A DNA stretch of 64,000 nt from Escherichia coli O157:H7 (GTDB lineage: Bacteria > Pseudomonadota > Gammaproteobacteria > Enterobacterales > Enterobacteriaceae), in NCBI RefSeq assembly GCF_013167455.1, contig NZ_CP038328.1; one strand, given 5' to 3'. The notes under the pieces are model-generated. The model was not told the DNA's origin. It ran no database searches and saw only the letters and a program-made list of their open reading frames with translations. Shown here piece after piece: positions 5,262 to 56,370 of this stretch. Both the position numbers and the translations under genes were made by a program. Within the stretch, counting starts at the first letter, position 1, and each line of letters begins with the position of its first letter.

Positions 5262-5553
5262 TTCTTTTTTAACTCTCACGCTTACCCTGAATATTCAGGG
5301 TAAGCGGTTTAGCTGCAATATATTAGTAAAGCTTATTACTGAGTTTGCGAATAATAAAAAAAGCAGTATATAAAATATCTCGATATTATTTTATTTATAT
5401 TCATGCGTCGCATATGAAAGTTTATTCATAACAGTAAATATCTCTCCATTCTTAGTGATCTACCTCACCTTTTAAACGCGCTTGCCGAATTTTGTTATTT
5501 ACTCTGACGAAAAATTGTCACGATACACGAAAGTTTTTCACAGGCGGCGACTC

Positions 5554-5889
5554 ATGGATAAAGAACGCATCATTCAGGAATTTGTGCCCGGCAAACAGGT
5601 CACACTGGCGCATCTCATCGCGCATCCCGGCGAGGAACTGGCGAAGAAAATCGGCGTTCCGGATGCGGGCGCAATTGGCATTATGACGCTAACTCCCGGC
5701 GAAACGGCGATGATCGCCGGTGATTTAGCGCTGAAAGCCGCCGATGTGCATATCGGATTTCTCGACCGCTTCAGTGGTGCATTGGTGATTTATGGCTCGG
5801 TGGGCGCAGTAGAAGAAGCGTTATCACAAACCGTCAGTGGTTTAGGTCGCTTATTAAATTATACGCTTTGTGAAATGACCAAAAGTTAA
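5554..5889 (+). CDS. eutS: ethanolamine utilisation microcompartment shell protein EutS
   Basis: ORF track 5482..5889; 111-aa product from internal ATG at 5554 ([10 protein letters not shown]...), BMC-domain protein at head of eut operon. Confidence 0.85.
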
Positions 5890-9535: not shown

Positions 9536-10939
9536 ATGAATCAACAGGATATTGAACAGGTGGTGAAAGCGGTACTGCTGAAAATGCAAAGCAGTGACAC
9601 GCCGCCCGCCGCCGTTCATGAGATGGGCGTTTTCGCGTCCCTGGATGACGCTGTTGCGGCAGCCAAAATTGCCCAGCAAGGGTTAAAGAGCGTGGCAATG
9701 CGCCAGTTAGCCATTGCTGCCATTCGTGAAGCAGGCGAAAAACACGCCAGAGATTTAGCGGAACTTGCCGTCAGTGAAACCGGCATGGGTCGCGTTGAAG
9801 ATAAATTTGCCAAAAACGTCGCTCAGGCACGCGGCACGCCAGGCGTTGAGTGTCTCTCTCCGCAAGTGCTGACGGGCGACAACGGCCTGACTTTAATTGA
9901 AAACGCGCCCTGGGGCGTGGTGGCTTCGGTGACGCCGTCCACTAACCCGGCGGCAACCGTAATTAATAACGCCATCAGCCTGATTGCCGCGGGCAACAGC
10001 GTCATTTTTGCCCCGCATCCGGCGGCGAAAAAAGTCTCCCAGCGGGCGATCACGCTGCTCAACCAGGCGATTGTTGCCGCAGGCGGGCCGGAAAACTTAC
10101 TGGTTACTGTGGCAAATCCGGATATCGAAACCGCGCAACGCTTGTTCAAGTTTCCGGGTATCGGCCTGCTGGTGGTGACCGGCGGCGAAGCGGTAGTAGA
10201 AGCGGCGCGTAAACACACCAATAAACGTCTGATTGCCGCAGGCGCTGGCAACCCGCCGGTAGTGGTGGATGAAACCGCTGACCTCGCCCGTGCTGCTCAG
10301 TCCATCGTCAAAGGCGCGTCTTTCGATAACAACATCATTTGTGCCGACGAAAAGGTACTGATTGTTGTTGATAGCGTAGCCGATGAACTGATGCGTCTGA
10401 TGGAAGGCCAGCACGCGGTGAAACTGACCGCAGAACAGGCGCAGCAGCTGCAACCGGTGTTGCTGAAAAATATCGACGAGCGCGGAAAAGGCACCGTCAG
10501 CCGTGACTGGGTTGGTCGCGACGCAGGCAAAATCGCGGCGGCAATCGGCCTTAAAGTTCCGCAAGAAACGCGCCTGCTGTTTGTGGAAACCACCGCAGAA
10601 CATCCGTTTGCCGTGACTGAACTGATGATGCCGGTGTTGCCCGTCGTGCGCGTCGCCAACGTGGCGGATGCCATTGCGCTAGCGGTGAAACTGGAAGGCG
10701 GTTGCCACCACACGGCGGCAATGCACTCGCGCAACATCGAAAACATGAACCAGATGGCGAATGCTATTGATACCAGCATTTTCGTTAAGAACGGACCGTG
10801 CATTGCCGGGCTGGGGCTGGGCGGGGAAGGCTGGACCACCATGACCATCACCACGCCAACCGGTGAAGGGGTGACCAGCGCGCGTACGTTTGTCCGTCTG
10901 CGTCGCTGTGTATTAGTCGATGCGTTTCGCATTGTTTAA
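9536..10939 (+). CDS. eutE: EutE, CoA-acylating acetaldehyde dehydrogenase
   Basis: 467-aa aldehyde dehydrogenase-family ORF. Confidence 0.92.
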   Translation: MNQQDIEQVVKAVLLKMQSSDTPPAAVHEMGVFASLDDAVAAAKIAQQGLKSVAMRQLAIAAIREAGEKHARDLAELAVSETGMGRVEDKFAKNVAQARGTPGVECLSPQVLTGDNGLTLIENAPWGVVASVTPSTNPAATVINNAISLIAAGNSVIFAPHPAAKKVSQRAITLLNQAIVAAGGPENLLVTVANPDIETAQRLFKFPGIGLLVVTGGEAVVEAARKHTNKRLIAAGAGNPPVVVDETADLARAAQSIVKGASFDNNIICADEKVLIVVDSVADELMRLMEGQHAVKLTAEQAQQLQPVLLKNIDERGKGTVSRDWVGRDAGKIAAAIGLKVPQETRLLFVETTAEHPFAVTELMMPVLPVVRVANVADAIALAVKLEGGCHHTAAMHSRNIENMNQMANAIDTSIFVKNGPCIAGLGLGGEGWTTMTITTPTGEGVTSARTFVRLRRCVLVDAFRIV

Positions 10940-10949
10940 GGAGTAACAG

Positions 10950-11786
10950 ATGGCGCACGACGAACAATGGCTCACCCCACGTCTGCAAACGGCGGCAACG
11001 CTGTGTAACCAGACGCCCGCCGCGACGGAATCTCCGCTGTGGCTGGGAGTGGATCTGGGCACCTGCGATGTGGTGTCGATGGTTGTCGACCGCGACGGTC
11101 AGCCAGTGGCGGTATGCCTCGACTGGGCCGATGTGGTTCGCGACGGCATCGTCTGGGATTTCTTCGGCGCGGTCACCATTGTTCGTCGCCATCTCGACAC
11201 GCTCGAGCAGCAATTCGGTCGTCGTTTTAGCCATGCGGCGACTTCATTTCCTCCAGGTACGGACCCGCGTATTTCCATCAACGTGCTGGAGTCTGCCGGG
11301 CTGGAAGTGAGCCATGTGCTGGATGAGCCAACCGCAGTCGCGGATCTGCTGCAACTGGACAACGCCGGTGTAGTGGATATCGGCGGTGGCACTACCGGCA
11401 TTGCCATCGTGAAAAAGGGCAAAGTGACGTACTCGGCGGATGAAGCCACCGGCGGACATCACATCTCTCTGACTTTCGCCGGAAATCGCCGTATTTCGCT
11501 GGAAGAGGCGGAGCAGTACAAGCGCGGTCACGGTGAAGAGATTTGGCCTACGGTGAAACCGGTGTACGAAAAAATGGCGGACATTGTCGCCCGGCATATT
11601 GAAGGGCAGGGCATTACTGATTTATGGCTGGCGGGCGGCTCCTGTATGCAACCGGGCGTGGCAGAACTGTTTCGCAAACAATTCCCGGCGTTACAGGTGC
11701 ATTTACCGCAGCACAGTTTGTTTATGACCCCGCTGGCGATCGCCAGTAGTGGGCGAGAGAAAGCGGAGGGGCTATATGCAAAATGA
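10950..11786 (+). CDS. eutJ: EutJ, Hsp70/actin-fold chaperone-like protein
   Basis: 278-aa ORF with DLGTCDV and DIGGGTTGIAIV ATPase-fold motifs. Confidence 0.9.
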   Translation: MAHDEQWLTPRLQTAATLCNQTPAATESPLWLGVDLGTCDVVSMVVDRDGQPVAVCLDWADVVRDGIVWDFFGAVTIVRRHLDTLEQQFGRRFSHAATSFPPGTDPRISINVLESAGLEVSHVLDEPTAVADLLQLDNAGVVDIGGGTTGIAIVKKGKVTYSADEATGGHHISLTFAGNRRISLEEAEQYKRGHGEEIWPTVKPVYEKMADIVARHIEGQGITDLWLAGGSCMQPGVAELFRKQFPALQVHLPQHSLFMTPLAIASSGREKAEGLYAK

Positions 11787-42918: not shown

Positions 42919-44943
<2,025 letters not shown>

Positions 44944-44944
44944 G

Positions 44945-45163
44945 ATGGAAAAAGAGCAGCTGATTGAAATAGCCAATACGATAATGCCGTTTGGCAAATA
45001 CAAAGGGCGTCGCTTAATCGACCTGCCGGAGGAGTATCTGCTGTGGTTTGCCCGCAAAGATGAGTTCCCGGCAGGGAAGCTCGGTGAGCTAATGCAAATC
45101 ACGCTGCTGATTAAAACCGAGGGGCTGACGCAACTGGTCCAGCCCCTGAAGCGTCCGCTTTAA
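44945..45163 (+). CDS. ypeB: small DUF3820-family protein YpeB
   Basis: 72-aa product from ATG 44945 (MEKEQLIEIANTIMPFGKYKGRRLIDLPEEYLLWF...), overlapping ligA stop by 1 nt (TGAGATG region). Confidence 0.75.
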   Translation: MEKEQLIEIANTIMPFGKYKGRRLIDLPEEYLLWFARKDEFPAGKLGELMQITLLIKTEGLTQLVQPLKRPL

Positions 45164-46158
45164 GCTTTATCGGCGCTGCTTTCCTGCTGCGCCTGTAACT
45201 GTTCGGTCTGGCGTTTGTATCGACGCGCCAGCACCGCACAGACCATCAATTGGATCTGATGGAAAATCATCAGGGGCAGCACCATCATACCGATCACCGA
45301 TGTGGGGAACAGAATGTTTGCCATCGGGATGCCATTTGCCAGACTCTTTTTCGAACCACAAAAGACGATAGTAATTTCATCTGCCTTATTGAAGCCCAGT
45401 CGGCGTGCCATAAAGACGTTAACTACAATCACGATAGCCAGAAGAACGCAGCTGACCACCACGATAAACAGCAATGATCCCCAGCCAACTTTATGCCAGA
45501 TACCATTAACGACGGCTTCGCTGAACGCTGTATAAACCACCAACAGAATGGACGTCTGGTCAGTTTTCGCAATCCATTTTTTATTGCGCGACACCCAGTC
45601 ACCAATCCACGGCCGGGAAAGATGCCCCAACACAAACGGCAGCAGCAGTTGCAGCATAATTTTACCGACCTGCTCAAGGCTGCCCCCTGCACCGTGAACA
45701 TTCATCACCAGACCAACCAGCAATGGTGAAAGGAAAATCCCCAGCAGACTGGATGCTGACGCAGAACAAACCGCCGCCGCGACGTTACCGCCCGCCATTG
45801 ACGTGAAGGCGATTGCAGACTGCACGGTAGCCGGGAGAATGCACAAGTAGAGAAAACCGGAGTAGAGCATCGGGTCGACATTTACCGGTTTCCACCAGGC
45901 AAACAGTACACCCAGAATCGGAAACAGCACGAAGGTGCTGCACATTACCCACAAATGCAGTCGCCAGTGACCACCGCCAGCAATAATCGCCTCACGCGAC
46001 AACTTCGCGCCGTGCATAAAGAACAGCAGGGCAATAGCTGCGGTGGTCAGATTTTCAAAGAAGGGGACGAAATCGCCTCTGGCAGGAAAGAAAGAGGCCA
46101 GCAACACCACCGTGATCAGGGTTAAGGTGAAAGGATCGAGGATACGAAAAAGTTTCAT
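45160..46158 (-). CDS. yfeH: bile acid:sodium symporter (BASS)-family transporter
   Basis: 332-aa polytopic membrane ORF; divergent from LysR-type yfeR. Confidence 0.85.
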   Translation of the reverse strand: MKLFRILDPFTLTLITVVLLASFFPARGDFVPFFENLTTAAIALLFFMHGAKLSREAIIAGGGHWRLHLWVMCSTFVLFPILGVLFAWWKPVNVDPMLYSGFLYLCILPATVQSAIAFTSMAGGNVAAAVCSASASSLLGIFLSPLLVGLVMNVHGAGGSLEQVGKIMLQLLLPFVLGHLSRPWIGDWVSRNKKWIAKTDQTSILLVVYTAFSEAVVNGIWHKVGWGSLLFIVVVSCVLLAIVIVVNVFMARRLGFNKADEITIVFCGSKKSLANGIPMANILFPTSVIGMMVLPLMIFHQIQLMVCAVLARRYKRQTEQLQAQQESSADKA

Positions 46159-46247
46159 AAAGACTCCAGATGATCGATGGTTCTATTGTGCTTCTTCCAG
46201 TTTGAGAAATAAAATTGATTTATTGCATCCATTCATGAAGAAAACAG

Positions 46248-47174
46248 ATGAATTATTCTTTAAAACAATTAAAGGTTTTCGTCACAGTAGCGCAGGAGAA
46301 AAGTTTTAGTCGTGCAGGAGAGCGTATCGGCCTGAGCCAGTCGGCAGTAAGTCACAGTGTGAAGGAGCTGGAAAATCATACTGGTGTTCGCCTGCTGGAC
46401 AGAACCACGCGTGAAGTGGTGCTTACAGATGCAGGGCAGCAGTTGGCTTTGCGTCTTGAGCGACTGCTGGATGAACTTAACAGCACGTTGCGCGATACCG
46501 GGCGTATGGGGCAACAACTGAGCGGAAAAGTTCGGGTCGCTGCCAGCCAGACCATTTCCGCGCATCTTATTCCGCAATGCATTGCTGAAAGCCATCGCCG
46601 CTATCCAGATATTCAGTTTGTCCTGCACGATCGTCCGCAGCAGTGGGTGATGGAAAGTATTCGCCAGGGAGATGTCGACTTTGGCATCGTCATCGATCCA
46701 GGCCCAGTGGGCGATCTGCAATGTGAAGTGATTCTTTCCGAGCCTTTCTTTCTGCTTTGCCATCGGGATAGCGCTTTGGCCGCGGAAGATTATGTACCCT
46801 GGCAGGCATTACAGGGAGCGAAATTGGTGTTGCAGGATTATGCGTCAGGCAGCCGACCGCTGATTGACGCAGCGCTGGCGCGCAATGGTATTCAGGCGAA
46901 TATTGTGCAGGAGATTGGACATCCGGCGACGCTGTTCCCGATGGTAGCCGCAGGCATCGGCATTAGTATTCTTCCCGCACTGGCGCTACCATTGCCTGAA
47001 GGTAGCCCGCTGGTGGTAAAGCGCATTACGCCGGTGGTGGAACGCCAGTTGATGCTGGTGCGTAGGAAAAACCGTTCACTTTCCACCGCCGCTGAAGCGT
47101 TATGGGACGTGGTACGAGACCAGGGCAATACGCTAATGGCTGGGCGGGAAGGGGATCCGTTGTATCAGATATAG
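46248..47174 (+). CDS. yfeR: LysR-family transcriptional regulator
   Basis: 308-aa ORF with N-terminal LysR HTH ([38 protein letters not shown]). Confidence 0.87.
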
Positions 47175-47506
47175 ATACCGATATGAGTCGTATTTTCAAC
47201 AGGATTTAGAAGGGATACATTCAGAGACAAACGCTGCTCTTTCTCCTGCGCCTTTTCTGCCTGCTGTCTCTGCAACTGCGCCAGTTGTGTTTCCAGTAGG
47301 GTGATTTGCTGTTGAATCAATTCGGCCTGTTTTTGCTTGTCTTCAGCACTGCCGCTAGTGTCTACAATCTCTTTAATGTGTTGAGTGAGTTTGATGATTT
47401 GCTGACTTATCCGCGCGATTTGTGAAGCAACATCGCTACCTTGTGATGCCCTGTTACTACTCTGTGTTTGTATGGAAGGAATTGAAGTTGAAGAGATAGT
47501 GGCCAT
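47165..47506 (-). CDS. FlxA-like Gln/Ser-rich coiled-coil protein (113 aa), probable sigma-28-dependent
   Basis: [29 protein letters not shown]...[30 protein letters not shown] 7 nt before ATG; visibly lower GC than neighbours; upstream sigma-28-like promoter. Family assignment from recall of FlxA character, not a search. Confidence 0.6.
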
Positions 47507-47534
47507 TGTTCAGTCCTCGTCACTGTACGAGGTA

Positions 47535-47561
47535 ATATCGGCAGAAGAACAAGGAACTTGA
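47535..47561 (-). promoter_or_regulatory. putative sigma-28 (FliA) promoter for the FlxA-like gene
   Basis: On - strand: TCAAGTTC-N11-GCCGATAT versus consensus TAAAGTTT-N11-GCCGATAA (6/8 and 7/8, exact 11-bp spacer), ending about 28 nt before the start codon. Confidence 0.55.
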
Positions 47562-47593
47562 GAAGAAAAATCAATCTTACAAATCGCAGATAG

Positions 47594-47621
47594 CAAAAAA
47601 GCGCCTTTAGGGCGCTTTTTT
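47594..47621 (-). terminator. rho-independent terminator of the valU-valX-valY-lysV operon (symmetric, A-run/T-run flanked)
   Basis: AAAAAAGCGCC-TTTAG-GGCGCTTTTTT hairpin immediately 3' of lysV. Confidence 0.75.
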
Positions 47622-47625
47622 ACAT

Positions 47626-47701
47626 TGGTGGGTCGTGCAGGATTCGAACCTGCGACCAATTGATTAAAAGTCAACTGCTCTACCAACTGAGCTAACGACC
47701 C
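47626..47701 (-). tRNA. lysV: tRNA-Lys (anticodon UUU)
   Basis: Reverse complement reads GGGTCGTTAGCTCAGTTGGTAGAGCAGTTGACTTTTAATCAATTGGTCGCAGGTTCGAATCCTGCACGACCCACCA. Confidence 0.95.
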
Positions 47702-47705
47702 GAAG

Positions 47706-47781
47706 TGGTGGGTGATGACGGGATCGAACCGCCGACCCCCTCCTTGTAAGGGAGGTGCTCTCCCAGCTGAGCTAATCACCC
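47706..47781 (-). tRNA. valY: tRNA-Val (anticodon UAC)
   Basis: Reverse complement reads GGGTGATTAGCTCAGCTGGGAGAGCACCTCCCTTACAAGGAGGGGGTCGGCGGTTCGATCCCGTCATCACCCACCA; third of three identical copies. Confidence 0.95.
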
Positions 47782-47827
47782 ACTTCGGTACTTCACATTT
47801 TTACAAGAAATTTAGCTGGTGAGAAAG

Positions 47828-47903
47828 TGGTGGGTGATGACGGGATCGAACCGCCGACCCCCTCCTTGTAAGGGAGGTGCTCTCCCAGCTGAGCTAATCA
47901 CCC
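47828..47903 (-). tRNA. valX: tRNA-Val (anticodon UAC)
   Basis: Identical to valY copy. Confidence 0.95.
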
Positions 47904-47947
47904 ACTTCTCAATTTCTTGCTACACGGCGGAGACTACATAAAGTAGT

Positions 47948-48023
47948 TGGTGGGTGATGACGGGATCGAACCGCCGACCCCCTCCTTGTAAGGGAGGTGC
48001 TCTCCCAGCTGAGCTAATCACCC
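47948..48023 (-). tRNA. valU: tRNA-Val (anticodon UAC)
   Basis: Identical to valY copy; first gene of the tRNA operon. Confidence 0.95.
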
Positions 48024-48040
48024 CCGCTGTGTGGAGTCGC

Positions 48041-48068
48041 ATTATAGGGAGAGTTCAAAATGAGTCAA
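48041..48068 (-). promoter_or_regulatory. sigma-70 promoter of valU-valX-valY-lysV operon
   Basis: On - strand TTGACT-N16-TATAAT followed by GC-rich discriminator (GCGACTCC), just upstream of valU. Confidence 0.7.
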
Positions 48069-48281
48069 CGCATTTTCTAAAGAAATTGTTCGTTCGTCGT
48101 AAATTTAAGCAAGATGATCGCAAAACAGACCGTGTTGCGCAATTTGTCAACGAAAACAATAATGCGTAAGGTTGCAACCCGAACTACATTGAGGAATCAG
48201 GCGGGAGTGATAGAATATCGCCCACTCAATTTTTCCAGGATTTGCCGGTTGTCGGCATCTTTCTAAACGTAAGGCCATTTC

Positions 48282-49697
48282 ATGAAAATCAAAACTCGCT
48301 TCGCGCCAAGCCCAACAGGCTATCTGCACGTTGGCGGCGCGCGTACTGCTCTTTACTCCTGGCTTTTTGCACGTAATCACGGCGGTGAGTTCGTGCTGCG
48401 TATTGAAGACACCGATCTTGAGCGTTCCACGCCGGAAGCTATCGAAGCCATTATGGATGGCATGAACTGGCTGAGCCTGGAGTGGGATGAAGGTCCGTAC
48501 TTCCAGACCAAACGTTTTGATCGCTACAACGCGGTGATCGATCAGATGCTGGAAGAGGGCACAGCTTATAAATGCTATTGCTCTAAAGAGCGCCTGGAAG
48601 CGCTGCGCGAAGAGCAAATGGCGAAAGGTGAGAAGCCGCGTTATGACGGTCGCTGCCGCCACAGTCATGAGCATCACGCTGATGATGAGCCGTGTGTCGT
48701 ACGTTTTGCTAACCCGCAGGAAGGTTCTGTTGTTTTTGACGATCAGATCCGTGGTCCGATCGAGTTCAGCAACCAGGAACTGGACGATCTTATTATCCGC
48801 CGTACCGATGGTTCCCCAACCTATAACTTCTGTGTGGTTGTCGATGACTGGGATATGGAAATCACCCACGTTATCCGTGGCGAAGACCATATCAACAACA
48901 CGCCACGCCAGATCAACATTCTTAAAGCCCTGAAAGCGCCGGTACCGGTTTACGCGCACGTTTCTATGATCAACGGCGATGACGGCAAAAAACTGTCCAA
49001 ACGTCACGGGGCAGTCAGCGTAATGCAGTATCGTGATGACGGTTATTTGCCAGAAGCACTGCTGAACTATCTGGTGCGTCTGGGCTGGTCCCACGGCGAT
49101 CAGGAAATCTTCACTCGTGAAGAGATGATCAAATACTTCACTTTGAATGCCGTCAGCAAATCTGCCAGTGCGTTCAACACCGACAAGCTGCTGTGGCTGA
49201 ACCATCACTACATTAACGCGCTGCCGCCGGAGTATGTTGCTACTCACTTACAGTGGCACATTGAGCAGGAAAATATCGATACCCGTAACGGCCCGCAGCT
49301 GGCTGATCTGGTGAAACTGCTGGGCGAACGCTGCAAGACGCTGAAAGAGATGGCACAGAGCTGCCGTTATTTCTACGAAGATTTTGCTGAGTTCGATGCC
49401 GACGCCGCGAAAAAACATCTGCGTCCGGTAGCGCGTCAGCCGCTGGAAGTGGTTCGTGACAAACTGGCCGCGATTACTGACTGGACAGCTGAAAACGTTC
49501 ATCACGCTATTCAGGCGACGGCGGATGAGCTGGAAGTGGGTATGGGTAAAGTTGGTATGCCGCTGCGTGTCGCCGTAACCGGTGCGGGGCAGTCTCCGGC
49601 GCTGGACGTTACCGTTCACGCGATCGGTAAGACCCGCAGTATCGAGCGTATCAACAAAGCGCTGGCTTTTATTGCGGAACGCGAAAATCAGCAGTAA
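48282..49697 (+). CDS. gltX: glutamyl-tRNA synthetase
   Basis: 471-aa ORF with HIGH-class motif ([12 protein letters not shown]) and KLSKR (KMSKS-like). The antisense 366-aa ORF 48147..49247 is a shadow. Confidence 0.97.
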
Positions 49698-50240
49698 TTA
49701 GCGCATAAAAGATAAACGGCAGGAGAGATACCCCTGCCGTTTTTTATTTATCCGGTGCGCCGTAAAACCCCGTCCTTCAGGGCGGGGATATAAGGCGCGG
49801 TTTTCCACCTGACCAGGTGTTTGCTGTTGTTCAATGTATTGGCGGATGACGGATATTGGCGCACCTCCGCAGCTACTGGCAAAATAGCCAGGACTCCACA
49901 AAACGCCTTTGTAGTAATACCTGACTGCAATATCTGGTCGATCTCGTCGCAGTAACCTACCCGATACGCCTTTGAGGCTGTTTACCAGACTGGATATCGC
50001 CAGTTTGGGAGGATAGTTAGTTAACAAATGGACGTGATCTGGTTCGCCATCCATTTCAACCAGTTCAGCTTCAAAATCAGCACATACATTTGAAAAGTAA
50101 GTGCGTAGTTTTTCTGTCGCGTCATAGTCAAAAATCTGACGTCGGTATCTGGTGACAAAGAACAGATGAACATGCATCAGGAAAACACAATGCCTTCCCC
50201 GTCGGATATCGGTTTCTTTATTCATAGACCAAAGTATCAT
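49698..50240 (-). CDS. tnpA: IS200/IS605-family Y1 (HUH) transposase TnpA, with unusual C-terminal extension
   Basis: ORF contains DIRRGRHCVFLMHVHLFFVTRYRRQIF...DHVHLL (HuH motif)...SPGYFASSCGG...IRQYIEQQQ; ORF continues ~40 codons beyond the usual end, through the gltX terminator. Start may be ATG 50225 (MNKETD...). Confidence 0.75.
   Translation of the reverse strand: MILWSMNKETDIRRGRHCVFLMHVHLFFVTRYRRQIFDYDATEKLRTYFSNVCADFEAELVEMDGEPDHVHLLTNYPPKLAISSLVNSLKGVSGRLLRRDRPDIAVRYYYKGVLWSPGYFASSCGGAPISVIRQYIEQQQTPGQVENRALYPRPEGRGFTAHRINKKRQGYLSCRLSFMR
49718..49747 (+). terminator. gltX rho-independent terminator
   Basis: CGGCAGG-AGAGATACC-CCTGCCG followed by TTTTTT, 20 nt after gltX stop. Confidence 0.75.
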
Positions 50241-50247
50241 TTGGCCT

Positions 50248-50583
50248 GTGAAACGACTACAGGCATTTAAATTCCAGTTAAGACCAGGTGGTCAACAGGA
50301 GCGTGAAATGAGGCGCTTCGCAGGCGCATGTCGTTTCGTTTTCAATCGTGCTCTGGCGCTTCAGAATGAGAATCATGAGGCCGGTAATAAATACATCCCT
50401 TACGGGAAAATGGCTTCCTGGCTGGTTGAGTGGAAAAACGCCACTGAAACGCAATGGCTTAAAGATGCCCCGTCACAGCCATTGCAACAGTCACTGAAAG
50501 AGCTTGAGCGGGCTTACAAAAACTTCTTCCGGAAGCGGGCTGCTTTTCCCCGATTCAAAAAGCGGGGACAGAATGATGCATTC
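50248..50583 (+). pseudogene. tnpB: tnpB (RNA-guided nuclease of IS200/IS605 family), N-terminal fragment interrupted by IS629
   Basis: GTG-start ORF (M)KRLQAFKFQLRPGGQQEREMRRFAGACRFVFNRALA..., typical TnpB N-terminus; terminates at the first triplet (TGA) of the IS629 left end. Confidence 0.8.
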
Positions 50584-50637
50584 TGAACCGCCCCGGGAAT
50601 CCTGGAGACTAAACTCCCTGAGAAAGAGGTAAACAGG

Positions 50638-50964
50638 ATGACTAAAAATACACGTTTTTCCCCCGAGGTCCGTCAACGAGCAGTTCGTATGGTTCTGGAA
50701 AGTCAGGGCGAATATGACTCACAATGGGCGGCAATTTGTTCCATTGCCCCAAAGATTGGCTGTACACCAGAGACTCTGCGTGTGTGGGTTCGTCAGCATG
50801 AGCGGGATACCGGGAGTGGTGATGGTGGACTCACCACCGCTGAACGTCAGCGTCTGAAAGAGCTGGAACGTGAAAATCGTGAACTGCGCCGCAGTAACGA
50901 TATCCTTCGCCAGGCTTCCGCTTATTTTGCGAAGGCGGAGTTCGACCGCCTCTGGAAAAAATAA
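50638..50964 (+). CDS. IS629 OrfA (HTH / leucine-zipper transposase N-terminal protein)
   Basis: 108-aa [60 protein letters not shown]... Confidence 0.9.
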
Positions 50965-51851
50965 TGCCGCTGCTGGATAAGCTGCGTGAGCAGTACGGGG
51001 TCGGACCGGTATGCAGTGAACTGCATATTGCCCCGTCAACGTATTACCACTGTCAGCAACAGCGACATCATCCTGATAAACGCAGTGCCCGTGCTCAGCG
51101 CGATGACTGGCTGAAGAGAGAGATACAGCGCGTATACGATGAAAATCATCAGGTGTACGGTGTGCGTAAAGTCTGGCGCCAGTTGTTACGCGAAGGTATC
51201 AGGGTGGCCAGATGTACAGTGGCGCGCCTCATGGCGGTTATGGGACTTGCCGGTGTTCTCCGGGGTAAAAAGGTCCGTACTACCGTCAGCCGGAAAGCCG
51301 TTTCCGCAGGCGACCGCGTAAACCGTCAGTTCGTGGCAGAACGTCCTGACCAGCTGTGGGTGGCTGATTTTACTTACGTCAGCACATGGCAGGGCTTCGT
51401 CTATGTGGCGTTCATCATTGATGTGTTTGCCGGATGTATCGTGGGGTGGCGAGTCTCATCGTCTATGGAAACGACATTCGTGCTGGATGCACTGGAGCAG
51501 GCGTTGTGGGCCCGTCGGCCGTCCGGCACAGTCCATCACAGTGATAAAGGTTCTCAGTATATATCACTGGCCTATACGGAGCGACTAAAAGAAGCAAAAC
51601 TGCTGGCATCAACAGGGAGTACAGGTGACTCGTATGACAACGCGATGGCGGAGAGCATCAATGGTCTTTACAAAGCGGAGGTAATACACCGTAAGAGCTG
51701 GAAAAACCGTGCAGAAGTGGAACTGGCCACACTCACGTGGGTGGACTGGTATAACAATCGACGATTGCTGGGAAGGCTGGGTCATATCCCTCCGGCAGAA
51801 GCAGAAAAAGCTTATTATGCTTCCATCAGAAACGATGATCTGGCAGCCTGA
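50964..51851 (+). CDS. IS629 OrfB (DDE integrase-type catalytic domain), expressed as OrfAB by -1 frameshift
   Basis: 295-aa ORF in -1 frame relative to orfA with DDE-region sequence (WVADFTYV...HSDKGSQY...NAMAESINGLYKAE); A-rich slippery stretch GGAAAAAATAATG at the overlap. Confidence 0.9.
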   Translation: MPLLDKLREQYGVGPVCSELHIAPSTYYHCQQQRHHPDKRSARAQRDDWLKREIQRVYDENHQVYGVRKVWRQLLREGIRVARCTVARLMAVMGLAGVLRGKKVRTTVSRKAVSAGDRVNRQFVAERPDQLWVADFTYVSTWQGFVYVAFIIDVFAGCIVGWRVSSSMETTFVLDALEQALWARRPSGTVHHSDKGSQYISLAYTERLKEAKLLASTGSTGDSYDNAMAESINGLYKAEVIHRKSWKNRAEVELATLTWVDWYNNRRLLGRLGHIPPAEAEKAYYASIRNDDLAA

Positions 51852-51896
51852 GTTCACAGATAAAACACTCTCCAGGAAAACCGGGGCGGTTCATTC

Positions 51897-52769
51897 CGCT
51901 ACCCGCAGGGCGTTAAGCTCGATCAGGAAAACAGCCGTATTTTTCTGCCGAAACTTGGCTGGATGCGCTACCTGAACAGCCGTCAGGTCACGGGTGTTGT
52001 GAAAAATGTCACTGTCAGCCAGTCCTGCGGTAAGTGGTACATCAGTATTCAGACAGAAAGTGAAGTATCAACTCCGGTTCACCCTTCAGCATCAATGGTC
52101 GGACTGGATGCTGGCGTGGCTAAACTCGCCACGCTGTCAGATGGCACAGTCTTTGAGCCTGTAAACAGTTTTCAGAAAAACCAGAAGAAGTTGGCGAGAC
52201 TTCAGCGACAGTTAAGCCGCAAGGTCAAATTCAGCAATAACTGGCAGAAGCAGAAACGCAAAATACAGCGACTGCATTCCTGTACCGCAAATATCCGCAG
52301 GGACTACCTTCACAAAGTCACAACGACCGTCAGCAAAAACCACGCAATGATAGTCATTGAGGATTTGAAGGTCAGCAACATGTCAAAGTCAGCAGCGGGT
52401 ACGGTCAGCCAGCCGGGGCGCAATGTCCGGGCAAAATCAGGTTTAAACCGTTCGATACTGGATCAGGGCTGGTATGAAATGCGCCGCCAGCTTGAGTACA
52501 AGCAGCTCTGGCGTGGCGGTCAGGTACTGGCTGTTCCGCCAGCGTACACAAGCCAGCGTTGCGCGTGCTGTGGTCATACAGCGAAAGAAAACCGCCTGTC
52601 ACAAAGTAAATTCAGATGCCAGGTATGTGGATATACAGCGAACGCCGATGTAAACGGCGCTCGTAACATTTTAGCGGCGGGGCACGCCGTTCTTGCCTGT
52701 GGAGAGATGGTGCAGTCAGGCCGCTCGTTGAAGCAGGAACCCACCGAAATGATTCAGGCGACAGCCTGA
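51897..52769 (+). pseudogene. tnpB: tnpB C-terminal fragment (RuvC-like nuclease and zinc-finger portion)
   Basis: In frame with N-terminal fragment once IS629 plus one TTC copy are removed (about 402 aa reconstructed); contains GLDAG (RuvC-I Asp), IVIEDLKV (RuvC-II Glu), CACCGH...[18 protein letters not shown] (Zn finger and RuvC-III). Confidence 0.8.
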
Positions 52770-52808
52770 ACGTAGCAGGGATCCTCGTCATTCAGGGCGT
52801 GGAGGATG

Positions 52809-53201
52809 TCAAGCTGATTCATCTATGTCGAGACGAGCAAGGAAATTACGAATTCCTTCGCGTGACAAAAATTGCGCAACTTTTTCCTGCTCACTGTGAG
52901 TCATGTTGTCTATTGCACTGATGATTTGCCGATAAGCAGGAGTGCGAATCCCCGGTGCGTATTCGGCAAGGGGTTCTTCGGCTTCCAGAAGCATCGGTGT
53001 GTTATGGAAGGCTGGCGTGTTCTGAATAAACTCGCAAACTTGCGTATCGACCAGAATAAGTCTGGCACGACCGCCTTTCACGCCGGGAAATTTTTCCGTT
53101 TTCCAGCCTTTTTCTCTGATCCAACGGTTAACAGTTTGTTTAGCCACACCGAGGCATTCAGCCAGTTCTTCGGTGGTCATTTTATTGCGTAATCTTTTCA
53201 T
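52809..53201 (-). CDS. yfeD: HTH DNA-binding protein YfeD
   Basis: 130-aa ORF MKRLRNKMTTEELAECLGVAKQTVNRWIREKGW...; paralogous to adjacent yfeC. Confidence 0.85.
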   Translation of the reverse strand: MKRLRNKMTTEELAECLGVAKQTVNRWIREKGWKTEKFPGVKGGRARLILVDTQVCEFIQNTPAFHNTPMLLEAEEPLAEYAPGIRTPAYRQIISAIDNMTHSEQEKVAQFLSREGIRNFLARLDIDESA

Positions 53202-53202
53202 A

Positions 53203-53562
53203 TTATTTGCTATCGCGAATCCCTAAGCGTTGTAACAATCCGATAATCCCTTCCCGCAGAAGCAAGGATGTAAACTGTTTTTGTTCAACTGGCGTCATCT
53301 CTTTCGCCAGTGTCACCAGCAATACTTCAAGCGGCGCATCACCAGAAAGGGCAGGCGCTTCTCCCTGACCTTCTGGACGTTCAGCATTACGAATATATTC
53401 ACGAACCTGTTCATTGACGTGAACCAGTCGGGCTTTGCCACCCTGGACGCCAGGTTTTGGTGACGTTGTCCAGCCTTCCTTGCGTACCCATTTATTAATG
53501 GTCTGGCGGCTATAGCCGGTCAGTCTGGCAAGTTCATCTGGTGTCATCCTCTCCTTGAACAT
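53203..53562 (-). CDS. yfeC: HTH DNA-binding protein YfeC
   Basis: 119-aa ORF MFKERMTPDELARLTGYSRQTINKWVRKEGW...; true start may be a few codons downstream. Confidence 0.8.
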   Translation of the reverse strand: MFKERMTPDELARLTGYSRQTINKWVRKEGWTTSPKPGVQGGKARLVHVNEQVREYIRNAERPEGQGEAPALSGDAPLEVLLVTLAKEMTPVEQKQFTSLLLREGIIGLLQRLGIRDSK

Positions 53563-53720
53563 AACAATTCCCTGAATGTATGTGGGTCTATTAGTAGTTC
53601 ATTTTATAGCACCACTTTACAGGAAACCGTGACATGAATAACTACTGAATGCGAGCGGTTTTCCAAAATTGTTCATTTGCCTGATTTTTCAGCGATTGAA
53701 ACTACACGTTGCAATTTGCC

Positions 53721-53749
53721 GTTGACACATTCGGGCGGAATTCATATGA
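53721..53749 (+). promoter_or_regulatory. sigma-70 promoter of alaW-alaX tRNA operon
   Basis: TTGACA-N17-TATGAT with GC-rich discriminator GCCGCCCG, ~35 nt upstream of alaW. Confidence 0.7.
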
Positions 53750-53782
53750 TGCCGCCCGTCAACTCGACAAGCTTTACGTGAC

Positions 53783-53858
<76 letters not shown>

Positions 53859-53897
53859 AATTTTGCACCCAGCAAATTTGGTACGTAAACGCATCGT

Positions 53898-53973
<76 letters not shown>

Positions 53974-54180
53974 AATTTCCAACCCTCGCTGCAAAGCGGG
54001 GGTTTTTTGTCTCTGCTTTTTGCCGCTTTTGTAATACAGTCTACGTCCGGGTTAGTGCCGCCTGGTGAAAGCATCATTGGATGAAAAATCGGCAACAGGA
54101 TGGCCCCTGTTTGCTTCGCAATGCGAATAAACTTATTATTTGTGTGCCTGAAAACCCCGATCAGTGAGAGTAGTGTACTC

Positions 54181-56370
54181 ATGTTTGTGGAGCATAACCT
54201 GATAAAAAATATCAAGATATTCACACTAGCGTTTACGCTCACCGTGGTACTTATTCAGCTATCCCGTTTTATTTCGCCACTTGCCATTATCCATTCCAGT
54301 TATATCTTTCTGGCGTGGATGCCACTGTGCGTAATGCTGTCAATCTTGTTTATCTTTGGCTGGCGCGGTGTCGTTCCCGTTTTATGCGGGATGTTTTGCA
54401 CCAATCTGTGGAACTTTCATCTCTCTTTTTTACAGACTGCGGTCATGCTCGGTAGCCAGACGTTTGTCGTGTTGTGTGCCTGCGCAATATTACGCTGGCA
54501 GCTGGGGACGCGTTGGCGTTATGGATTGACCAGCCGATATGTCTGGCAACGTCTGTTCTGGCTTGGTTTGGTGACGCCGATCGGCATCAAATGCAGCATG
54601 TATCTTGTGGGGAGCTTCTTTGATTTCCCGCTAAAGATATCCACCTTTTTCGGCGATGCGGATGCCATTTTCACGGTCGTTGATTTGCTAAGCCTTTTCA
54701 CCGCTGTGCTGATTTACAACATGCTTTTCTACTATCTCACTCGCATGATTGTAAGTCCCCACTTTGCGCAGATATTGTGGCGCAGGGATATCGCTCCGTC
54801 GTTGGGCAAAGAGAAACGCGCATTTACCTTAAGCTGGCTGGCAGCGTTAAGCGTGCTGCTACTTCTGTTGTGCACACCTTATGAAAACGACTTTATTGCC
54901 GGTTACCTGGTACCCGTTTTCTTCATCATCTTTACCCTCGGGGTCGGTAAGCTTCGCTATCCGTTTTTAAATCTCACTTGGGCTGTTTCAACGCTTTGCC
55001 TGCTGAATTACAACCAGAACTTTTTGCAAGGGGTGGAAACCGAATATTCGCTGGCATTTATTCTCGCGGTGCTGATTTCCTTTAGCGTTTGCCTGCTCTA
55101 TATGGTGCGCATTTATCATCGCAGTGAATGGCTTAATCGCCGCTGGCATTTGCAGGCGCTGACCGATCCGTTAACGCTCCTGCCCAACTTTCGTGCGTTG
55201 GAACAAGCGCCGGAGCAAGAGGCGGGCAAGAGTTTTTGCTGCCTGCGCATTGATAATCTTGAGTTTATGAGTCGTCATTACGGGTTGATGATGCGTGTTC
55301 ACTGTATCCGATCAATTTACCGTACGCTGCTGCCATTGATGCAGGAAAACGAAAAGTTGTATCAATTGCCGGGTAGTGAACTGCTGTTAGTGCTGAGCGG
55401 GCCTGAAACGGAAGGGCGACTCCAGCATATGGTTAACATCCTGAATAGTCGGCAAATTCACTGGAACAATACCGGGCTGGATATGGGCTATGGTGCTGCC
55501 TGGGGGCGTTTTGATGGAAATCAGGAAACCCTGCAACCCTTGTTGGGGCAGTTAAGCTGGCTGGCGGAGCAATCCTGCGCACATCATCATGTGCTGGCGC
55601 TGGATAGCCGAGAGGAGATGGTTTCCGGGCAGACCACTAAACAGGTGCTATTGCTGAATACCATTCGCACGGCGTTAGATCAGGGTGATTTGCTGCTCTA
55701 CGCCCAGCCAATTCGCAACAAAGAGGGTGAAGGTTATGATGAGGTCCTCGCGCGACTGAAATATGACGGCGGCATTATGACCCCGGATAAGTTTCTGCCC
55801 CTTATTGCTCAGTTTAACCTTAGCGCGCGTTTTGATTTGCAAGTGCTGGAATCCTTGTTGAAGTGGCTGGCAACACACCCTTGCGACAAAAAAGGCCCGC
55901 GCTTTTCAGTTAATTTAATGCCGCTCACGCTGCTGCAAAAGAATATTGCCGGGCGGATTATTCGTCTATTTAAGCGTTATCACATCTCCCCGCAGGCGGT
56001 CATTCTTGAGATCACCGAGGAGCAGGCGTTTTCTAACGCAGAAAGCAGCATGTACAACATCGAGCAGCTGCATAAGTTTGGTTTCCGGATTGCGATTGAT
56101 GACTTTGGCACCGGCTATGCCAACTACGAACGGTTAAAGCGTTTGCAGGCTGATATCATCAAAATTGATGGCGTCTTTGTGAAAGATATTGTCACGAATA
56201 CGCTGGATGCGATGATTGTGAGATCAATTACCGATCTGGCGAAAGCGAAGTCATTGAGTGTGGTCGCGGAGTTTGTCGAGACGCAACAGCAACAGGCGCT
56301 ATTGCATAAGCTCGGGGTGCAATATCTGCAAGGGTATTTGATTGGTCGCCCGCAGCCATTAGCTGATTAA
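54181..56370 (+). CDS. pdeA: membrane-anchored GGDEF-EAL protein, c-di-GMP phosphodiesterase PdeA (YfeA)
   Basis: ORF track 54100..56370; 729-aa product from ATG 54181 with N-terminal multi-TM (MASE-like) region and C-terminal EAL-type sequence. Confidence 0.85.
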   Translation: MFVEHNLIKNIKIFTLAFTLTVVLIQLSRFISPLAIIHSSYIFLAWMPLCVMLSILFIFGWRGVVPVLCGMFCTNLWNFHLSFLQTAVMLGSQTFVVLCACAILRWQLGTRWRYGLTSRYVWQRLFWLGLVTPIGIKCSMYLVGSFFDFPLKISTFFGDADAIFTVVDLLSLFTAVLIYNMLFYYLTRMIVSPHFAQILWRRDIAPSLGKEKRAFTLSWLAALSVLLLLLCTPYENDFIAGYLVPVFFIIFTLGVGKLRYPFLNLTWAVSTLCLLNYNQNFLQGVETEYSLAFILAVLISFSVCLLYMVRIYHRSEWLNRRWHLQALTDPLTLLPNFRALEQAPEQEAGKSFCCLRIDNLEFMSRHYGLMMRVHCIRSIYRTLLPLMQENEKLYQLPGSELLLVLSGPETEGRLQHMVNILNSRQIHWNNTGLDMGYGAAWGRFDGNQETLQPLLGQLSWLAEQSCAHHHVLALDSREEMVSGQTTKQVLLLNTIRTALDQGDLLLYAQPIRNKEGEGYDEVLARLKYDGGIMTPDKFLPLIAQFNLSARFDLQVLESLLKWLATHPCDKKGPRFSVNLMPLTLLQKNIAGRIIRLFKRYHISPQAVILEITEEQAFSNAESSMYNIEQLHKFGFRIAIDDFGTGYANYERLKRLQADIIKIDGVFVKDIVTNTLDAMIVRSITDLAKAKSLSVVAEFVETQQQQALLHKLGVQYLQGYLIGRPQPLAD

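Follow-up and report, generated by a model that had tools for sequence, protein, structure and literature searches.

The DNA between positions 48068 and 47595 of the window, the 64,000-nt stretch analysed here, is almost certainly the chromosomal valU-valX-valY-lysV tRNA operon of Escherichia coli in a genome of the O157:H7 type. The operon lies on the minus strand, runs from 48068 down to 47595 and consists, according to ARAGORN and Rfam, of three co-oriented genes for tRNA-Val(UAC) followed by one gene for tRNA-Lys(UUU). The feature is real, was correctly described by the original prediction and is fully ordinary: operon, promoter, transcript and the unusual processing that begins with RNase P have already been published for K-12, and the sequence is the same here. 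The outcome is confirmatory, in that the earlier calls, made from the letters alone, proved accurate, and it carries little weight as a discovery. Our own observations concern gene calls, sequence identity, conservation and copy-number variants; the transcription start, the transcript and the order of processing are taken from the literature on K-12.

Gene content and chromosomal setting

The three Val genes are each 76 nt long and, as had been claimed, 100% identical to one another in a repeat search. They are the orthologues of valU (47948-48023), valX (47828-47903) and valY (47706-47781), all encoded on the minus strand and all assigned by ARAGORN (anticodon tac), Rfam and alignment with K-12. 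The gene for tRNA-Lys(UUU), the lysV orthologue (47626-47701, minus strand; anticodon ttt), was identified by the same three approaches and indeed begins 4 nt after the last Val gene, the intervening CTTC (47702-47705, minus strand) being read directly from the sequence. With the Rfam tRNA model, whose gathering score is 29, the four genes reached 65.9-79.2 bits (E <= 7e-13). The differing spacers between the Val copies, originally given as about 45 nt, could be specified as 44 nt for spacer 1 between valU and valX (47904-47947) and 46 nt for spacer 2 between valX and valY (47782-47827), both on the minus strand and both read from the sequence together with the ARAGORN calls, the latter also from the K-12 alignment. 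Two open reading frames that overlap the tRNA genes, 47510-47779 (minus strand, 89 aa) and 47954-48169 (plus strand, 71 aa), were dismissed as mechanical artefacts.

The gene for glutamate-tRNA ligase, gltX (48282-49697, plus strand), is divergent from the valU promoter. A 901-nt query covering the region matched many O157:H7 chromosomes at 100% identity, and in these records the annotation reads FlxA-like protein, tRNA-Lys, three times tRNA-Val, and gltX. The synteny is that of K-12, with the divergent gltX and the alaX-alaW side beyond it. There, past gltX, yfeD and yfeC, two identical tRNA-Ala(GGC) genes (53783-53858 and 53898-53973, plus strand), 39 nt apart, represent the alaX-alaW orthologues and make up a second small tRNA operon. 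Between gltX and yfeD, a tnpB gene of the IS200/IS605 family (InsQ/TnpB) is interrupted by a 1.3-kb element of the IS3 family, IS629 type (50584-51891; context 49698-52769), with the terminal sequence TGAACCGCCCCGGG. The element contains orfA (50638-50964), orfB (50964-51851) and an ALIL frameshift pseudoknot (50919-51035). The same tnpB is intact in the O157 strain FDAARGOS_293 (9849-11057 of record L001).

Promoter, transcript and terminator

A hexamer scan placed the -35 element of the valU promoter, TTGACT, at 48063-48068 and the -10 element, TATAAT, 16 bp away at 48041-48046, both on the minus strand; taken together (48068 to 48041), they agree with the consensus at 11 of 12 positions. 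The scan by itself did not rise above chance, as it returned 2 sites with 2.4 expected, and the promoter was assigned not on its account but because the sequence is identical to that of the mapped K-12 promoter and does not vary across genera. TTGACT, the 16-bp spacing and TATAAT are invariant in all 63 complete three-Val loci among the matches listed, which come from many species and several genera of the Enterobacterales, while parts of the stretch between the hexamers vary in the same loci. The 8-nt discriminator, GCGACTCC (48033-48040, minus strand; 6 of 8 positions G or C), was read from the sequence, and discriminator plus leader, GCGACTCCACACAGCGG, which make up the 17 nt from the -10 element to the tRNA, are identical in 58 of the 63 loci. 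The conservation of promoter (invariant hexamers) and leader (58/63) spans two bacterial families, and the predicted combination of TTGACT-N16-TATAAT with a GC-rich discriminator stands. In K-12, RNA circularisation mapped the transcription start 9 nt upstream of mature valU (PMC4176162). Transferred to the window, this mapping puts the predicted start at an A at 48032 on the minus strand, eight bases past the -10 hexamer, and from there to 47595, where the terminator has its final T, the distance amounts to 438 nt, equal to the length predicted for the K-12 transcript.

At the other end of the operon, an inverted-repeat search and folding revealed a 3' trailer, AUGU, and a Rho-independent terminator, AAAAAAGCGCC-CUAAA-GGCGCUUUUUU (47595-47625, minus strand). 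Its two arms (47595-47605 and 47611-47621) comprise 11 nt each, are 100% complementary and enclose a loop of 5 nt; the hairpin folds with -19.1 kcal/mol (z = -5.7) on the minus strand and with -17.5 kcal/mol on the plus strand. The structure is a perfect symmetric palindrome (47621 to 47595) bordered by runs of A and of T, in full agreement with the shared symmetric terminator that had been proposed. A simple terminator scan did not report the operon terminator, and this negative result was overruled by the perfect hairpin with 11-bp arms obtained from folding and the inverted-repeat search; the scan probably missed it because the A/T extensions of the arms absorb the T run. Across the 63 loci the hairpin with its A and T runs is retained and changes in the stem are paired (GGCGCC/GGCGCC, GCACC/GGTGC). 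When K-12 RNA was examined with a terminator probe, only the full-length transcript was detected (PMC4176162).

On the opposite strand, read-through from yfeR is the only traffic that could approach the terminator. No obvious terminator for yfeR was found ahead of that of the tRNA operon, and it is tempting to speculate that the symmetric structure might also stop yfeR read-through from the other side. The open reading frames for yfeR (46248-47174, plus strand) and for the FlxA-like protein (47165-47506, minus strand) are convergent and overlap by 10 nt at their 3' ends (47165-47174).

For K-12, Agrawal, Mohanty and Kushner described the operon as a single transcript with a predicted length of about 438 nt and reported the valY-lysV spacer as CUUC (PMC4176162). 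According to the same work, the Rho-independent terminator is detached first, by RNase P, which cuts between U and G at 2-3 nt past the lysV CCA, and processing driven by this enzyme then runs in the 3'-to-5' direction; RNase E has almost no part in it, and the 3' ends are finished by RNase PH in the case of the Val tRNAs and by RNase T in the case of the Lys tRNA (PMC4176162). A corresponding course can be proposed for the operon in the window. Transcription from a strong sigma-70 promoter, similar in layout to rrn P1, would start at A48032 and proceed along the minus strand, divergent from that of gltX. It would yield one transcript of about 438 nt in which three identical tRNA-Val(UAC) are followed by one tRNA-Lys(UUU) and which terminates at the palindromic Rho-independent terminator (47621-47595). 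As in K-12, RNase P would first cut off this terminator 2-3 nt past the CCA of lysV, and the 3' ends would be trimmed by RNase PH for Val and by RNase T for Lys.

Beyond the terminator, in the same orientation as the operon and outside the tRNA transcript, lies the FlxA-like gene (47165-47506, minus strand), which encodes a protein of 113 aa with a match to Pfam FlxA (PF14282, E = 2.7e-13; WP_000201407.1 in O157). A putative promoter of the sigma-28 (FliA) type, TCAAGTTC-N11-GCCGATAT (47561-47535, minus strand), precedes it and was recognized by motif match and recurrence across genera. It agrees with the consensus TAAAGTTT-N11-GCCGATAA at 13 of 16 positions, and no other site in the window matches with up to three mismatches. 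Taken by itself the motif is not significant (one match versus 0.46 expected; at least one match in 37 of 100 shuffled sequences), and it was its conservation across genera that made it convincing. Among the matches listed for other loci, a relaxed -10 pattern, N19-GCCGAnAn, occurs upstream of 30 of 36 FlxA-like homologues, with TCAAG as the first bases of most instances; of the six homologues that lack the pattern, most have a CCGATA variant. The motif closely resembles mapped FliA class 3 sites, namely those of flgKL (TCAAGTCC..GCCGATAA) and motAB (..GCCGATAT) (PMC4183435). The K-12 flxA gene is a known FliA target whose expression depends on FliA (PMC4183435), whereas the gene in the window is a chromosomal FlxA-like paralogue and not the flxA of the Qin prophage; it may likewise depend on FliA. 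The combination of FlxA-like gene and sigma-28-type motif recurs beside Val3-Lys operons in many genera of the Enterobacterales, which suggests an old chromosomal, FliA-regulated paralogue of Qin prophage flxA; at the K-12 locus the gene is absent. The operon terminator had also been proposed to form the upstream boundary of the FlxA-like promoter, and the sigma-28-type motif does begin about 33 nt beyond its T run. The terminator would isolate a growth-linked sigma-70 tRNA unit from a downstream FlxA-like gene that is presumably driven from its own sigma-28-type promoter.

Conservation, Val gene number and spacers

A search for the Val-NNNN-Lys junction with one genome per species returned at least 120 loci from Escherichia, Citrobacter, Klebsiella, Salmonella, Enterobacter, Kluyvera, Pantoea, Erwinia and other genera. 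In those loci among the matches listed that were re-annotated, the common layout is Val-~45-Val-~45-Val-4-Lys, and the number of Val genes ranges from 1 to 5. The set used for assessing conservation comprised the 63 complete three-Val loci among the matches listed, including that of the window, from Enterobacteriaceae and Erwiniaceae, and in most of them the Val-Lys spacer is CTTC. The spacers between the Val genes diverge across genera and retain only short blocks, chiefly at the 5' border of the following tRNA: a CCGCnGTG block and the 3' end in spacer 1, and the 3' block GcAGTACCGAAGT in spacer 2. This pattern is what would be expected for RNase P leaders.

Within E. coli, the presence of the spacers was counted in 5,426 complete genomes. 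Spacer 1 was found in 5,261 and was absent in 165 of them, spacer 2 was found in 5,181 and was absent in 245, and only 349 genomes contain a spacer 2 with at least 99% identity to the query from the window. Synthetic junction queries detected duplicated spacers in the form of an sp1-Val-sp1 junction in about 70 genomes and of an sp2-Val-sp2 junction in about 79, a few of these matches being in two pieces and less reliable. A spacer comparison among strains had been suggested as a check, and both loss and duplication of spacers were encountered in E. coli. Strain OkiPb01686 (L003) has the arrangement Val-44-Val-4-Lys, AML003_ev02 (L005) has Val-46-Val-4-Lys and AVS0787 (L004) retains only Val-4-Lys; four Val genes are present in IAI39 (L006), with spacer 1 duplicated, and in O145 RM9872 (L007), with spacer 2 duplicated. 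The two-copy locus of OkiPb01686 shares the accessions for the FlxA-like protein (WP_000201407.1) and GltX (WP_000695640.1) with the O157 record L001, and in that of AML003_ev02 the neighbours, the RtT sRNA, xapR and xapB, match the K-12 arrangement. Outside E. coli, a locus from Intestinirhabdus alba (L086) has five Val genes with alternating spacers of 44 and 41 nt, the pattern expected from unequal crossover between the first and the last copy, and another locus (L088) has four Val genes. A few percent of the complete E. coli genomes thus carry 1, 2 or 4 Val genes at this position instead of 3. This is a modest population observation; the genome counts are not phylogenetically independent and some copy-number variants could be assembly errors.

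Variants of this kind are what unequal crossing-over between identical Val genes should produce, and our comparison supports this mechanism: homologous recombination between misaligned copies would cause the number of Val genes to vary among strains. The claim that the identical repeats are potential substrates for recombination is supported by these copy-number variants. It could be argued instead that the identity of the Val copies is due to constraint on the tRNA sequence alone, that neither gene conversion nor recombination is involved and that the repeats are not active substrates. Only 12 distinct Val sequences occur in the 63 loci, which represent many genera, and constraint on the tRNA therefore accounts for much of the identity; furthermore, the three copies of a locus agree completely in 45 of the 63 and differ by 1-2 bases in the other 18. 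However, a single spacer survives intact in two of the deletions (L003, L005) and no spacer in the third (L004), the expansions contain a duplicated spacer (L006, L007), and the five copies with alternating spacers in L086 extend the picture beyond E. coli, so that we regard constraint alone as an unlikely explanation. A more far-reaching reading, in which Val gene dosage, with 1 to 4 copies in E. coli and as many as 5 in other species, is a selected polymorphism that arises recurrently by unequal recombination and in which the spacer blocks have significance beyond that of RNase P leaders, appears similarly improbable to us. Unequal crossing-over between identical genes, with much of their identity owed to constraint, is the reading we prefer, and it fits with the dispensability of the unit. 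In the K-12 MG1655(DE3) deletion set, ten transcription units had to be complemented from a plasmid; valUXY-lysV was not one of them (PMC11480407) and is for this reason considered non-essential, which matches the tolerated loss of copies.

The short conserved blocks could be taken to mean that the spacers, in addition to their part as leaders and trailers in processing, yield stable small RNAs with a regulatory role, e.g., in sponging. CCGCnGTG in spacer 1 and the 3' block of spacer 2 are indeed kept across genera, and a small hairpin, ACUAC-UUUAU-GUAGU, opens spacer 1. Nevertheless, a structured spacer RNA was dropped as a candidate because the spacers fold no better than shuffled sequences (z = +0.4 and +1.3). 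The only Rfam family with matches here is tRNA, the best-kept parts lie directly 5' of the next tRNA, just as RNase P leaders do, and there are strains in which one or the other spacer has been lost. Taken together, this makes regulatory spacer RNAs very unlikely, and we continue to view the conserved blocks as probable RNase P leaders. A mobile or prophage-derived origin was considered as well. Phages are frequent carriers of tRNA arrays, FlxA was originally described from the Qin prophage and a FlxA-like gene lies downstream; elements of the IS200/IS605 family and the IS629 type occur 2-4 kb away, and the DNA downstream of lysV differs between K-12 and the window. Conserved synteny, however, rules out for all practical purposes both an island of this kind and integration at lysV. 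The same adjacency to gltX extends to E. coli, Citrobacter, Klebsiella, Salmonella, Pantoea, Erwinia and others; of the 5,426 E. coli genomes, 5,410 contain at least 80% of the operon; and the FlxA-like gene is itself syntenic across genera, with variability limited to the DNA beyond the terminator.

Relation to known systems

The closest known counterpart is the operon of K-12 MG1655, valU (b2401), valX, valY and lysV (b2404), which has the same genes in the same order, the same spacer lengths and the same divergent gltX. Promoter, discriminator, leader and terminator are equal base for base, and over the segment that opens upstream of the promoter and closes with the terminator, a pairwise alignment contains a single mismatch, located in spacer 2 (A in the window, G in K-12). 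The two loci differ downstream. In K-12, lysV is followed by an RtT-like tRNA-linked repeat, flanked by the lysV 3' end (its last ~16 nt) and the terminator in duplicate, and then by xapR-xapB-xapA-yfeN before yfeR is reached, whereas in the window the terminator is directly followed by the FlxA-like gene and then by yfeR. The RtT-like region of genomes of the K-12 type was located at 5330-5594 in the K-12 record (L002) and at 1896-2021 in that of AML003_ev02 (L005); within 44000-55000 of the window, no RtT element matched at the Rfam gathering threshold. At least 80% of the 901-nt query is covered by 4,381 of the 5,426 E. coli genomes (~81%), which fits with the FlxA-like arrangement being the common one in the species.

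The second point of reference is provided by promoters of the rrn P1 type, the layout of which is exemplified by rrnB P1. Like these, the valU promoter combines near-consensus hexamers and a 16-bp spacer with a G+C-rich discriminator of 8 nt that starts with GCG, and it shares with them a start at A and A/T-rich DNA ahead of the -35 element. It differs from rrnB P1 in the -35 hexamer itself, which is TTGACT in valU. On the basis of this rrn P1-like layout, stringent and growth-rate control of the valU promoter can reasonably be inferred. A paper by Champagne and Lapointe from 1998 reportedly deals, going by its title, with FIS at the divergent gltX/valU promoters.

Finally, the operon invites comparison with the lysT unit, which contains the same tRNA-Val(UAC) and tRNA-Lys(UUU) species, likewise has very short Val-Lys spacers and ends in an identical terminator that is also removed first by RNase P (PMC4176162). 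The lysT unit differs in that it comprises seven genes, most of them for Lys, and is located elsewhere on the chromosome, outside the window; it is essential, whereas valUXY-lysV is not (PMC11480407).
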